A stretch of DNA of 64,000 bases from Escherichia coli (GTDB lineage Bacteria; Pseudomonadota; Gammaproteobacteria; Enterobacterales; Enterobacteriaceae): assembly GCF_041248615.1 (NCBI RefSeq), contig NZ_CP158426.1. The stretch is one strand, 5' to 3'. Of this stretch, positions 27,001 to 33,000 are shown in pieces. Within the stretch, counting starts at the first letter, position 1; every line of letters begins with the position of its first letter. The position numbers are program-made.

Positions 27001-30000
27001 TACTCTACTGTTCGCCCGTATTTGTTAAATATAGCTATTATTGAAAACGAAATACTACCTGAACCGATCGCTAGTACTGCCTTCGCTATTATTCATCCAT
27101 ATACGGCGATGGATGCTAATTTCATTTATTATTATCTACGTTCTCCGGTATTTGTTTGTTATGTTGAAAATTGTCAGACAGGGGTTGCCTATCCAGCAAT
27201 CAATGACAAACAATTTTTTTCTGGAATAACTCCAGTTCCTCCATCCTTGGAACAAGTTCGCATCGCAAACAAAATCAAAGAATTAATGTCCCTCTGCGAC
27301 CAACTGGAACAGCAATCCCTGACCAGTCTGGACGCACATCAACAACTGGTTGAAACCCTGTTGGGAACGCTGACTGACAGCCAAAACGCCGAGGAACTGG
27401 CTGAAAACTGGACGCGTATTAGCGAGCATTTCGACACACTATTTACCACCGAAGCCAGCGTGGATGCGCTAAAACAGACCATTCTGCAACTGGCGGTAAT
27501 GGGTAAACTTGTGCCGCAGGATCCGAATGACGAACCTGCCTCTGAACTGCTCAAACGAATTGCGCAGGAAAAAGCACAACTGGTGAAAGACGGGAAAATA
27601 AAAAAACAAAAACCGTTGCCGCCGATTAGCGATGAGGAAAAACCGTTTGAACTGCCGGATGGGTGGGAGTGGTGTCGTATCGTTGATTTAGCAATTGTAG
27701 GTACAGGCGCAACACCTTCTCGTGATGAGCCCAACTATTGGAAAAATGGAGTAATTAATTGGGTGACAAGTGGAGAAACTTGCTTACCTTTTATTCAAAA
27801 CACCACCGAACATATTACCCAAAAGGCTGTTGATGAAACAAATGTTTCAATCTATCCACCAGGAACTCTTATTATTGCAATGTATGGACAAGGAAAAACA
27901 AGAGGGCAAATCACAGAGTTATTAATAAGTGCTGGAACAAACCAAGCATGCGCAGCCATTCGATTAATCGAAACGGATAATGAGCATCGTAAATTTATAA
28001 AACTTTTTTTTGAAAAGTCTTATGATGATTTACGTAGTTTAGCCGCTGGAGGTGCACAGCCAAATCTAAATGTAGCAAAAATATCACAAACTGTTATACC
28101 ATTGCCCCCTAAAAGAGAACAAAATCGGATCGTTTCTATTGTGGGGGAGTTATTAATTTATTGCGATAAATTACGCAAAAATATCCAGACCGCCCAACAA
28201 ACCCAACTGCACCTTGCAGATGCACTAACTGACGCGGCGATAAACTAATTTTCTCGCCCTCAAAAAAACCAATAAAGCGGCTCAATAGCCGCTTTATTAA
28301 CATCACCAAAAATTATATTTCACGCTAATTTTCATCTTATTTTCATTAATTTTTAGCTGGACTTTCCCTGTATTTACTGATGATATATCCAGGTATTTAG
28401 CGCGGTGCGGATGTGCGCCAACACACCCACACCGCTCATCACAATCCCTATTTCACGAGAATAGTAATCATGACTGACACGCATTCTATTGCACAACCGT
28501 TCGAAGCAGAAGTCTCCCCGGCAAATAACCGTCAATTAACCGTGAGTTATGCGAGCCGCTACCCGGATTACAGCCGTATTCCCGCCATCACCCTGAAAGG
28601 TCAGTGGCTGGAAGCTGCCGGTTTTGCCACCGGCACGGCGGTAGATGTCAAAGTGATGGAAGGCTGTATTGTCCTCACCGCCCAACCACCCGCCGCCGAA
28701 GAGAGCGAGCTAATGCAGTCGCTGCGCCAGGTGTGCAAGCTGTCGGCGCGTAAACAAAAGCAGGTGCGGGAATTTATTGGGGTGATTGCGGGTAAACAGA
28801 AAGTCGCCTGATACATTGACCCGGTAGCGCCAGTGCTACCGGGTATTATTCGCCACGTTATACCAACGCGTTCTCCATCTGTTTTTCAAATGCCTGACGA
28901 ATTAATCCCATAATGTAAGGAAGTTGTGCGAGGTCGCTGAAACCAATTTCCACATCACCATTGCCCCAGCGCCCAACATTTGTCACATCTTTGGCAATAC
29001 CTTTCGGATCGACCAGTTCATGAAACTGCATATTAAGCGACAATCGCAGTCGGCTTTTTTGCGGCACAACATCAACAAAATTCGTTTCAGCTTTAAACGC
29101 AATATATAGCTTCAATACTTCCTGCGTGATCCCTGCGTCCAGGCGCATAACTTCATCGCGAAGATGATCGAATAACACTCGGCTATGCGAACCATCAGCA
29201 AGAAAAGGAAAATCATTCAGGCTGTAACTGGTTTTGTTTTCAGGCTGCCCCCGATAAACAGCTAAAACCTCTTCAGGAAGAGCAGGCGCTTGCCAAACCT
29301 GAACCGCAAGCTCCGCCAGACGATCGGCACGGGCATGAATGGCGGCTTCATCCCATTTTTCGCACTGTCCAAGACCGATATTCAAATAGAGCGGGCTATG
29401 TTTAAAGCCGTCTTCAATATCGCGTTTTTCCGCGAAAGGTCTGTCACTGTAGCGGGAGTTATAGCGCGTTAAAGTGAGATTCCCCAACGTATGTAACAGT
29501 TCTTTATGCACACGCTGCCAGTCGCTTCCCAGCTCTTCACGCCATTTAGCCGACAGATTTTCGTTCTGCGGCATAATATGCTCAATCGTAAACTCTTCCA
29601 CGCGCTCTCTGCGTTTATCGTTTTCCAGTCGTCGTAACCAGTAGCTGCGACTACGGAAGTTATAGAGATCGCGAACTTTTAATTCCCGTTTAAATTCATC
29701 ATCGTTGGGGAAACGACGATATGAAGGCAGATTCAGAAAATGTACCTGAATACTTTCCAGATATTTTTCTTTAATAATGACCTTATAAAAGGTAGCAAAC
29801 GTCTTGTTAAGAGAATTTGTCGGAATCGCACATACTGCACGGCGGAAAACATAAGATTCAATTAAACGAATTATGCTCAGGAAATCTTCGTGAGGCAAAT
29901 CGCCATTTTTATAGTCATGATAAAGCGCCAGTAAGAAAGGATACGCCACATCGACCTTTAACTCGCGCAAATCCTGAAAAGCCGTAGCAAGCGATTTGTC

Positions 30001-33000
30001 ACTTTCTTTACCCAATGCCATTGCACAGTAATACTCCGCGTAGATGTGAATATCTTCAACCAGGCGATCTACGCCTTTTTCAGCAACACTCTGGCTGCGG
30101 GCATGGAGTTTAAATGCCTCATAGACTTCATCTGTCCGAGGGATCTCCCCCGTTTTTACCGTCAGATAATGACGCATAAAACTGTCAAAATATTCGCTGT
30201 AACCTTGCTGACCAAAAGCGACTTCCATGGGTCGCCAGTGATCTTCATACAACCGGGTTTGATGCTCTGGTTCGAGGCCCATCAGAATAAAATTGCGCAC
30301 CAGATCGGCCTGACTTAACGCCTTACCGGTAGAGTTCATACTTTCAAAAATCAGTTGCGGATTATCCTGACCACGATTAAGCGCCACATCGACAATTAAT
30401 AATTTTGCTAACCCACGACATAAGGGAATCAAGTCATCCCCGAGTTTGGCAATTTGTTCATCAAAGAAAGTAAAGTTTTCCATTATTCGATGGGAATAGT
30501 TTTCTGGCATTGGTCTTTGTTTTATTAACGCCAGCAAACTGTCTTTATCAGTCTCGGTCAGCAGTAATTTAAATCCTTTCTCGCCGGACTCATAAGGATT
30601 GAGTAAATAATAATTACGCAATTTCATTGCTGAAAAGCCATCAAAAACTTCGTCTTCGCCAAGATGACGCGATAAAGCCTCAATCAGCAACATTGCGGTC
30701 GTCAGCCTTTGTTGACCATCAATGACCAGTAACGGAGAAATACCAGAAACCTGATACAACCCCTGCTCAATATAAACAACCGAACCGATAAAATGCGCTG
30801 ATATATCGTCACGCTTTCCGGCACGAATGATGTCGTCCCAAAGTTGCCGACATTGTTGTTCTGTCCATGAATAAGTCCGTTGATAAATGGGAATAACAAA
30901 CTGCTGCGAACGTTTTAAAAAATCGAGTAGGCGGGCTTCTGTAGCTTTCATTCTGACGTCTTTCCGTGAAGCGATGATTTCGCAATAATAACCACTTCCT
31001 TGTGGAGGTTATAGAGAAATCCTGTTTATCCGCGACGAACTGCCCCCTCACTCCACATCCTCCCTGCGTAACCCAATATCCCTCAACCGCTCATCACTCA
31101 TCTGCTGTAACACCCGCCGGGCCTGCATTTGCCGCCGCCAACGCCTCACTGCCTGCCAGAGTTGCACAAGTCCAATAAACGGTGCTTTAGCTTTGTTTTC
31201 GTGAAATTCCATCTGCTGCCTCCTCATCTTTCAGAGGCTTCATCATCCGCCTTCTGGCAGTTCACAATACAGATGCAAATATTAGTTTTATTTAACATAC
31301 AGACAGGTTAAAACAGCATCTGCATCCGGTTTTTTAGCCTCATCTGTACCGGTTTTTCTCTCTGTATGGTCCAAAGAAGGAATACAGCATGACGCGTTAT
31401 CAACATCTGGCGACTTTGCTTGCCGAGCGGATTGAGCAAGGGCTGTATCGTCACGGGGAGAAATTGCCGTCGGTGCGCAGCTTAAGTCAGGAGCACGGCG
31501 TCAGCATCAGCACCGTGCAGCAGGCGTACCAGACGCTGGAGACGATGAAGCTCATCACTCCGCAGCCGCGTTCGGGTTATTTTGTCGCACAACGTAAAGC
31601 CCAGCCGCCAGTACCACCAATGACGCGTCCGGTGCAGCGCCCGGTGGAAATTACCCAGTGGGATCAGGTGCTGGATATGCTGGAGGCGCATAGCGACAGT
31701 TCCATTGTACCGTTAAGCAAAAGCACGCCGGATGTCGAAACGCCCAGCCTGAAACCGCTGTGGCGTGAGCTAAGCCGGGTGGTGCAGCATAATCTGCAAA
31801 CCGTTCTCGGTTATGACTTGTTAGCCGGTCAGCGAGTGTTGCGAGAGCAGATTGCCCGCCTGATGCTCGACAGCGGCTCGGTGGTCACTGCCGATGACAT
31901 CATCATCACCAGCGGCTGCCATAACTCGATGTCGCTGGCGTTAATGGCGGTGTGTAAACCGGGCGATATTGTCGCGGTCGAATCCCCCTGTTATTACGGT
32001 TCGATGCAGATGCTGCGCGGCATGGGCGTGAAAGTGATTGAAATCCCAACCGATCCAGAAACAGGCATCAGCGTTGAAGCGCTGGAACTGGCGCTGGAAC
32101 AGTGGCCGATTAAAGGCATCATTCTGGTGCCAAACTGTAATAATCCGCTGGGATTTATTATGCCGGACGCGCGCAAACGGGCCGTTCTCTCGCTCGCTCA
32201 GCGTCATGATATTGTGATTTTTGAAGATGATGTCTACGGCGAACTGGCGACGGAGTATCCGCGCCCGCGGACCATTCATTCCTGGGATATCGACGGGCGA
32301 GTGCTACTGTGCAGCTCGTTCAGTAAAAGTATTGCACCTGGCCTGCGCGTGGGTTGGGTCGCACCGGGGCGTTATCACGATAAACTGATGCATATGAAAT
32401 ACGCCATCAGCAGCTTTAATGTGCCGTCCACGCAAATGGCGGCGGCAACGTTTGTGCTGGAAGGTCACTATCATCGCCATATCCGGCGGATGCGGCAGAT
32501 CTATCAGCGCAATCTGGCACTTTATACCTGCTGGATACGGGAATATTTTCCCTGCGAAATCTGTATTACGCGTCCGAAAGGAGGATTTTTACTGTGGATA
32601 GAATTGCCTGAACAGGTCGATATGGTCTGCGTCGCGCGGCAGCTGTGCCGCATGAAAATCCAGGTGGCGGCAGGCTCGATTTTCTCGGCTTCCGGCAAAT
32701 ACCGTAATTGTCTGCGCATCAACTGCGCTTTGCCGCTCAGCGAAACCTATCGCGAAGCACTGAAGCAAATTGGCGAGGCCGTGTATCGGGCAATAGAATA
32801 ATTTCGAATAAGTGGCGAGGCCCCTGATTTACTCTCACGAATAGCGTGTGACTCGTTTTATCTTTGCAGGGTCATCGCCACGTTCCAGCATGGCTTAGGC
32901 AAAGTGCGCTTTGTTCATGCCGGATGCCATGTGAACGCCTTACCAGGTCTACAAAATATTAAAAGTTCAATATATTTAATGGATTATGTAGACCTGATAA

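Follow-up and report, generated by a model that had tools for sequence, protein, structure and literature searches.

The window analyzed here, a stretch of 64,000 nucleotides from Escherichia coli (NCBI RefSeq assembly GCF_041248615.1, contig NZ_CP158426.1), carries on its minus strand, at 28858..30951, a gene for a single-chain nuclease of the GmrSD family that ends in a DUF5655 domain. This identity, the domain architecture, and the intactness of the gene are close to certain. The gene is an ordinary, common, and already catalogued member of its family in a known variable slot, and by analogy with characterized relatives, it probably encodes an active defense nuclease in this strain. For the reading favoured overall, an intact GmrSD-family defense nuclease whose tail contacts nucleic acid, the chances are slightly better than even. 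The gene tells which restriction barrier a strain probably carries, which is relevant to phage therapy and to the transformation of strains of the uropathogenic and avian pathogenic types. DUF5655 recurs on defense nucleases, sometimes in triplicate.

Nuclease core and DUF5655 tail

The gene consists of one ATG-to-stop frame of 697 codons plus the stop in the list of open reading frames (ORFs) of the window. An initial annotation, made from the sequence alone, had described a 697-aa protein with DUF262 and DUF1524 motifs at 28858-30951, and the ORF list, the translation, and Pfam matches to PF03235 and PF07510 agree with that description. Residues 9-222 (30286..30927; all parts of the gene lie on the minus strand) form the DUF262 or GmrSD_N domain, a ParB-like NTPase (PF03235, E 9.4e-35) that contains the NTP-hydrolysis motif of the family, DGQQR (residues 78-82; 30706..30720). 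The next region, residues 223-414 (29710..30285), is an all-helical linker. In the full-length AlphaFold2 model, which has a predicted local distance difference test (pLDDT) score of 87 and a predicted template modeling (pTM) score of 0.73, this region is almost wholly helical, with 10-residue blocks averaging approximately 78-96 in pLDDT. Residues 415-547 (29311..29709) make up the DUF1524 or GmrSD_C domain, a His-Me (HNH-type) nuclease (PF07510, E 1e-26) with the catalytic motif EHIMP at residues 457-461 (E457, H458, and P461; 29569..29583) and N491 and N498 downstream. Approximately 140-150 residues extend past DUF1524, after ...RADRLAELAVQVWQ. An interdomain linker (residues 548-588; 29188..29310) is variable, with few conserved columns in the alignments, and is modeled at lower confidence (pLDDT blocks of 73 and 70, and below 50 at residues 569-572); it leads into the DUF5655 domain, which Pfam and the model place at residues ~589-693 (28873..29187).

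The catalytic positions are well conserved. In a family alignment of 40 sequences, all homologs that are 41-82% identical, P461 and N491 are invariant, and DGQQR, E457, H458, and N498 are nearly so. In alignments with DndI and SspE, the counterparts of the EHIMP motif are their EH/DH motifs. Eco94GmrSD is dead when its analogous residues D507, H508, or N522 are mutated, and HEC-06, a validated single-gene defense system, is inactive as a Q79A, R80A, E471A, or H472A mutant (Payne et al. 2024, bioRxiv 10.1101/2024.01.29.577857). The Q79A and R80A substitutions, which abolish defense, fall on the equivalents of the DGQQR motif in the window protein (10.1101/2024.01.29.577857).

The protein has the features by which the GmrSD family is recognized: DUF262 with DGQQR, DUF1524 with (D/E)HxxP and a downstream Asn, the helical linker (200-400 residues in the family), and, in the model, a fold like that of solved members, with DndI, SspE, and BrxU retrieved by Foldseek. 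Among the GmrSD-type profiles of PADLOC, "Orf5" (PDLC02693) matches residues 10-553 over its whole 543 positions at 738 bits, and three HEC-06 models (PDLC04157, PDLC04155, and PDLC04154) match over nearly all of their positions at 208-226 bits. Since the "Orf5" profile far outscores the HEC-06 models, the protein is placed in a sister group of HEC-06 rather than in HEC-06 proper. The PADLOC GmrSD-type profiles all end where the tail starts. In a Foldseek search with the full model, the nearest solved structure is DndI (9jfl; E 4e-16, TM 0.50-0.57, 18% identity), followed by SspE and then by BrxU (E 8e-5); a sequence search puts DndI (E 1.9e-12) and SspE in the same order. The domains of McrBC, namely the McrB AAA+ GTPase and the McrC nuclease, are absent from the slot gene of the window.

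The residues beyond DUF1524 had been described in the initial annotation as a possible extra domain that could be assigned to no known one. The models bear out the separate domain. The lack of an assignment does not stand, as the tail matches Pfam PF18899 (DUF5655) over residues 591-690 and model positions 13-108 of 109 (E 3.4e-13, 50 bits) and is thus assignable to a domain. The further thought that the tail might be an already described part of the DUF1524 fold is half right: the domain is catalogued, and it lies outside DUF1524. Modeled alone with 60 homologous sequences (pLDDT 93, pTM 0.82), the tail comprises a helix (tail residues 34-49), a four-strand meander, a long loop, a fifth strand, and a long helix (119-141), and it is again confident in the full-length model behind the weaker linker. 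As modeled, the tail is a separate, independently folding fourth domain, held on a flexible linker of ~35 residues outside the DUF1524 fold.

Foldseek of the full model also yields local matches to YjbR and to YdhG of Bacillus subtilis, and in the model the tail shares its three-dimensional fold with the "double-wing" proteins of the YjbR/MmcQ type. PF04237, the Pfam family of YjbR itself, is absent from the Pfam scan of the protein, and NCBIfam and PHROGs scans of the tail return no match. A match of the whole protein to IS4 in NCBIfam is below the cutoff and was set aside as chance. In the literature, YjbR/MmcQ proteins are described as having a CyaY-like fold with a putative DNA-binding "double-wing" motif like that of MotA-CTD, and their fusions to EVE domains and nucleases are recorded; the McrB-N paper lists YjbR, 2a8e, and 3mqz as structural neighbors of McrB-N. 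Two proven DNA readers belong to the fold class to which the model assigns the tail.

Within the tail, conservation is highest in the GRWGNGD loop (residues 660-666; 28954..28974), in which G, W, G, N, and G are each at least 90% conserved among 60 tail sequences and G663 and G665 are invariant in the 40-sequence alignment. Other conserved positions (Y, A, K, T, N, F, V, D, and Q) lie along strands 2-3, and there is an invariant Q in the last helix. This pattern points to a specific site, not a generic basic surface, and the loop is a candidate functional site.

The tail is a regular part of proteins of this kind. All 120 closest homologs (70-98% identical, ~700 aa), which include proteins of Citrobacter, Halomonas, Oceanimonas, Nitrincola, Salinivibrio, and Kiritimatiella, share the three Pfam domains of the window protein, PF18899 included, in precomputed Pfam assignments. 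An exhaustive HMMER search returned 1448 clusters (50% identity) with E values up to 0.001, many of them proteins of ~690-705 aa with DUF5655 at the extreme end, and the same architecture is present in AFDB for Helicobacter pylori, Eubacterium limosum, Proteus, Moraxella, Herpetosiphon, and Methanobrevibacter. Judging by these sequence matches, the architecture is widespread across bacteria and archaea, and the DUF5655 tail is constant in the subfamily.

DUF5655 also occurs in other settings. Up to three tandem copies stand behind a GmrSD C-terminus (P0135), and one is found behind a SLOG LD_cluster3 domain (P0241). The PADLOC defense candidate PDC-S18 ends in DUF5655 (E 1e-25), with extra copies in P0236; the window protein matches only positions 203-301 of the 302 in the PDC-S18 profile. 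The N-terminus of PDC-S18 has a D...EYK motif by eye and sub-threshold matches to HSDR_N_2 and NucS_C (E ~0.1), both of the PD-(D/E)XK type. Proteins that appeared to consist of DUF5655 alone (249 aa or less, from a word-index search with the tail) were rejected as truncated gene calls that begin inside the DUF1524 C-terminus. Apparent fusions to HsdM or HsdR (metagenome proteins P0207 and P0194) were likewise rejected, with a piece of the GmrSD C-terminus lying in between; ORFs in which a truncated HsdM or HsdR continues into the 3ʹ end of a GmrSD+DUF5655 gene seem to have arisen from neighboring genes by deletion or by chimeric assembly. HsdS-DUF5655 ORFs that have no intervening GmrSD piece are uncertain, and one of these (L010 5055-6239) is on a short contig and adjoins an integrase and phage genes. 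In the "complete" genome of E. coli IH5 (L003 5236-5577), a DUF5655 fragment lies among unrelated flagellar, O-antigen, plasmid repA, and Wadjet pieces, a stretch that looks like a misassembly or a junk contig joined to the chromosome.

The slot between symE and yjiS

The gene is flanked directly by symE (28470-28811, plus strand) and yjiS (31048-31212, minus strand), as the ORF list and annotation confirm for the initial annotation. Homology with other alleles is lost at the symE stop or shortly ahead of it and picks up again at ~31043, at CCCCCTCACTCC, close to the yjiS stop. An allele-specific cassette, 28812..31042, is thereby delimited in BLAST comparisons with a K-12-type locus (L008) and with an empty one from a sequence type 131 (ST131) genome (L009). 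Three states of the slot were seen. The K-12 type holds mcrB, mcrC, two helicase pseudogene pieces (yjiV), and yjiT over ~7.5 kb; the empty state of the ST131 genome is 42 bp; and the third state is the single GmrSD-DUF5655 gene. From these alignments, the gene represents one of the three alternative states of the symE-yjiS slot, which is part of E. coli's immigration control region (ICR). The proposal that it replaces mcrBC together with yjiT/yjiV accordingly holds in the sense of allelic states.

This state is common. A 3-kb query (28300-31300) matches 4231 of 5426 complete E. coli genomes via its flanks and 1283 over at least 80% of its length; the gene alone, at a coverage of at least 80%, is found in 1288 of the 5426, and the query places almost all copies on the chromosome.

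The gene has already been reported under other names. He et al. described a diverged GmrSD homolog in the ICR where McrBC is absent (He et al. 2015, Sci Rep 5:9747, PMC4437046, section 17, Fig. 8), adjoining an endoribonuclease gene, hsdS, hsdM, hsdR, and mrr, and listed it as c5421 of CFT073, UTI89_C5048, APECO1_2080 (733 aa), in ABU 83972, and in others (PMC4437046). A later review also states that the McrBC locus is replaced by a GmrSD homolog in some E. coli, with GmrSD in 12% of ICRs (EcoSal Plus 2025, PMC12707154). Silas et al. clustered enterobacterial GmrSD proteins, the largest cluster being CLS_001 with 116 members, among them D782_3934 of FGI 57, WP_001589601, and WP_001513533 (Silas et al. 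2025, Nat Commun 16:7828, PMC12373910); their supplementary data also list CFT073 locus tag C_RS25605 and its neighborhood (PMC12373910). D782_3934 is 74% identical to the window protein, and the accessions WP_001589601 and WP_001513533 are numbered between the symE proteins and the yjiR/rpn proteins of ST2747 and FCI23. The homolog and the accession numbers suggest that the window gene belongs to CLS_001. The DUF5655 tail goes unmentioned in He et al. 2015, EcoSal Plus 2025, and Silas et al. 2025. Machnicka et al. 2015 named DUF4268, DUF4357, and DNA_binding_1 as GmrSD add-ons and left other C-terminal regions unassigned, and in the literature searched, DUF5655 is named only in an unrelated genome note.

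At the left border of the cassette, symE and the nuclease gene converge, and their stop codons enclose a hairpin (28819..28844) that has a perfect 10-bp stem and a 6-nt loop and an RNA fold of -20.2 kcal/mol (z -4.3). It is likely the shared transcription stop of both genes. The K-12-type and ST131 alleles carry different hairpins at the same place, which indicates that the terminator travels with the cassette. A simple terminator scan missed this hairpin, which has no T-run after it. In a consensus promoter scan, sites were no commoner than in shuffled sequence, and none was found upstream of the gene start at 30951. On the other side of symE, Rfam identifies the SymR antisense RNA (RF01809, 88 bits; 28399-28475, minus strand), which overlaps the 5ʹ end of symE, and the SOS-induced toxin module is thus intact beside the nuclease gene.

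Within ~9 kb on each side, the annotated neighbors are those of the ICR: btsT, yjiX, yjiA, hsdRMS, symE, yjiS, yjiR, rpn, and mdtM, with yjiR, the rpn-family gene, and mdtM continuing the yjiS side. The Type I genes are all on the plus strand in the ORF list, with hsdR at 22535-24967, hsdM at 24998-26503, and hsdS at 26503-28248. In the corresponding loci of ST2747 and CFT073, RefSeq assigns the R subunit to the EcoAI/FtnUII family; in the K-12-type genome, hsdR is annotated differently and, in the strain fetched, has an internal stop. The slot gene had been called the second GmrSD-like gene of the window, and the other is indeed present at 20605-22278 (minus strand): a tail-less gene for 557 aa, 24% identical to the slot gene and with a GC content of 0.31-0.35, that lies between yjiA and hsdR, in the place of mrr in K-12. 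The Type I system thus has a different GmrSD-type nuclease gene on each side. ST2747, identical over 28300-31300, has two "hypothetical" genes between yjiA and hsdR instead.

In CFT073 (L002 6750-7978) and FCI23, yjiS is cut to an 81-nt ORF, yjiR and mdtM are absent, and the rpn-family gene is adjacent; carriers thus do not all share one right-hand border of the variable region. On the yjiA-hsd side, other E. coli and FGI 57 have a paralogous allele (protein 77-82% identical, tail DNA ~81% identical) that adjoins a Fic gene. In E. coli N3 (L004 5016-8553), a GmrSD+DUF5655 gene on the yjiA-hsdM side lies by Fic and BrnT/BrnA genes and is split by IS4; it is probably the gene of the 77%-identical E. 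coli protein cluster P0289. D782_3934 of FGI 57 is in the same yjiA-hsd side position as the N3 copy. With copies in both positions, the family can occupy either slot.

Intact and frameshifted alleles

The reading frame is unbroken over 697 codons in the window, ST2747, CFT073, 06_3044, and FCI23, as seen in ORF listings and translations. The window gene is 100% identical to that of ST2747 and 96-98% identical to the intact CFT073, 06_3044, and FCI23 copies, and the exact 697-aa protein is present on 836 public contigs, named "DUF262 domain-containing protein" in GenBank. Among four intact alleles, the ratio of nonsynonymous to synonymous substitution rates (dN/dS) is 0.05-0.09 overall and 0.05-0.20 for the tail. 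By this measure, the gene is kept by purifying selection where intact, in all four of its parts, tail included.

Other copies are broken. In strain F1 E4 (O157-like, from cattle), one G is lost from a run of five (gene nt ~797-801; 30147..30151 of the window, minus strand), which leads to a stop at codon 294 and to annotated coding sequences (CDSs) of 293 and 387 aa. In a sample of 52 evenly spaced full-length matches, 35 have the intact length (34 at 2094 nt and one at 2097 nt), 15 (approximately 29%) are 2093 nt long and mostly from O157:H7, one has an IS1 insertion, and one is 5ʹ-truncated. Length leaves point nonsense mutations possible, so the two-thirds that appear intact are an upper estimate. 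The G-run site was read in F1 E4, and the other fourteen 2093-nt copies are known by their length alone. Approximately 190 further genomes hold only fragments of the gene. On this evidence, the O157:H7 lineage lost the enzyme by a single-base slip. A slip in a homopolymer could revert, and the site might be an on/off switch, not a dead end.

These lesions are the grounds for supposing that the gene is a decaying remnant without a current function in this strain, as is the RefSeq entry, which consists of a CDS for a 387-aa "GmrSD domain-containing protein" and a "DUF262, incomplete" pseudogene piece. That supposition is very improbable, given that the 697 codons of the window copy form an uninterrupted frame in which every catalytic motif is present and that dN/dS among intact alleles is low. 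Moreover, RefSeq applies the same split even to ST2747 and CFT073 (L001 9559-11652; L002 4559-6652), whose frames have no lesion, and the split is thus an annotation artifact. The O157-type proteins WP_001304006 and WP_001304007 probably feed the annotation pipeline, hence the split of intact copies, and defense inventories built on RefSeq proteins may miss or miscount the enzyme. The suspicion that the gene would be a disrupted pseudogene in related strains is therefore correct for O157:H7, where it is frameshifted, and incorrect for the window and most carriers, where it is intact.

Proposed function and relation to known systems

An enzyme of this kind would work much as its relatives Eco94GmrSD, BrxU, HEC-06, DndI, and SspE do. 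The protein would dimerize, NTP binding and hydrolysis would switch its conformation, and the His-Me site would cut or nick incoming phage DNA. By analogy, the target may well be DNA with a non-host modification, which would make the enzyme a Type IV restriction system; the odds for this are a little above even. From its fold, a YjbR/YdhG/CyaY-like "double-wing," the tail would be an additional nucleic-acid-contacting module that chooses or holds the substrate, with the KAETNFVD strand and the GRWGNGD loop forming the contact site. Taken on its own, binding of nucleic acid by the modeled tail is plausible, if short of probable. The two roles proposed in the initial annotation, a modification sensor or an interaction module, are both conceivable for the tail.

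Several observations weigh against this reading. In structure, the core resembles DndI and SspE, which sense phosphorothioate, more closely than BrxU, which depends on base modification. When all PDB sequences were searched with a profile of the tail, no relative emerged, and in particular no solved YjbR or YdhG. The tail is net acidic, with 15 K+R versus 20 D+E over residues 554-697 and 13 versus 15 in the folded part, and DNA binders do not usually carry such a charge. Frataxins, Nqo15, and type III secretion chaperones, whose ligands are metals or proteins, also belong to this fold class. The decay of the gene in O157:H7 and its remnants elsewhere show that it is dispensable. Additionally, no activity data for the window protein were found in the literature. 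Silas et al. tested one synthesized representative per cluster on T-even phages, and five additional systems were active (PMC12373910); the active clusters are shown in figures and are not named in the text, legends, source-data list, or supplementary tables (PMC12373910).

The acidic charge is equally an argument for a somewhat unlikely alternative, in which the tail is a regulatory or protein-binding module that holds the nuclease off until infection, binds a phage protein, or acts as a decoy for IPI-type inhibitors, and the core alone recognizes DNA. The flexible, low-confidence linker is consistent with such a module, as is the presence of DUF5655 behind SLOG (LD_cluster3), a domain type commonly interpreted as sensing nucleotides or ligands. 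Most of the conserved residues are polar, and they lie in clusters (K, T, N, D, Q, W, N, and Q), which suggests a specific pocket rather than a surface that binds the backbone, and specific injected phage inhibitors against each GmrSD enzyme would place selective pressure on accessory surfaces. However, no partner is known, HEC-06, BrxU, and Eco94GmrSD are regulated and active without a tail, and it is for the closest structural neighbors of the tail, YjbR and DR2400, that DNA binding is predicted.

The kinship of the core with DndI and SspE, the best solved relatives by sequence and by fold, raises a different alternative for the target. The enzyme could read a host self-mark, such as phosphorothioate or perhaps the methylation of the neighboring Type I system, and attack unmarked DNA. 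Y23 is present, corresponding to the Y of the YQR motif with which DndI senses phosphorothioate, and the gene is near hsdRMS, GmrSD-like genes being often embedded in Type I systems. This alternative is nonetheless quite improbable. The window protein shares only 18% identity with DndI; DUF262 domains in general have the YQR motif, which is found in the tail-less GmrSD protein of the same window as well; and DndI is toxic without its modification partner, yet the gene adjoins Type I systems whose R and S subunits are annotated differently. The phosphorothioate that DndI and SspE sense is the product of linked dnd or ssp genes, and no dndBCDE or sspABCD genes are annotated within ~9 kb on either side. 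Given this absence and the generality of the YQR tyrosine, Type IV restriction is kept as the most probable mode.

A bolder extension of the nucleic-acid-binding tail is that DUF5655 serves specifically to read modified or foreign DNA and is a domain of the "double-wing" class like MotA-CTD and McrB-N, recruited by at least two unrelated nuclease types, the His-Me GmrSD proteins and the apparently PD-(D/E)XK-like PDC-S18. This is unlikely. If true, DUF5655 would set the substrate range of what is apparently the largest enterobacterial GmrSD cluster, and the mcrBC slot would hold, in a quarter of strains, an enzyme that achieves modification-dependent restriction by way of a reader domain related in structure but recruited independently.

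Known systems resemble the window protein in the core or in the tail. HEC-06 matches the core end to end at ~225 bits (residues 8-555), with DGQQR and EHxxP at nearly equal positions; its profiles (558-569 positions), however, stop where the tail of the window protein starts, and HEC-06 is defined by its embedding in Hma systems. DndI (9jfl) and SspE (6jiv and 7drs) are the closest solved cores, with the same domain order and a conformational switch driven by the NTPase, but they are only 16-18% identical and have no DUF5655 tail. BrxU, Eco94GmrSD, and the CT596 GmrSD belong to the same Pfam family and share its catalytic logic, acting as Type IV enzymes on DNA with 5hmC, glc-5hmC, or 5mC, but they are tail-less and distant, as is evident from the BrxU Foldseek score; Eco94GmrSD is 24% identical to APECO1_2080 (He et al. 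2015, PMC4437046).

For the tail, YjbR/MmcQ (PF04237, DUF419), YdhG-like proteins (DUF1801), T4 MotA-CTD, and McrB-N have no detectable sequence similarity to it, and function cannot be transferred from them at these scores. Its own motifs, KAETNFVD and GRWGNGD, and its acidity set it apart from proteins of the YjbR/YdhG type. PDC-S18 shares the domain of the tail in its last ~100 residues, whereas its first ~200 are unrelated to GmrSD. The closest counterpart of the whole is c5421 of CFT073, which is the same gene: it is 97.9% identical in DNA, lies in the same slot by symE and hsdSMR, and, counted from the ATG, is equally long. Older annotations start it upstream (733-739 aa), and He et al. 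and Silas et al. annotate only DUF262/DUF1524 (COG1479), to which the present analysis adds the DUF5655 tail.

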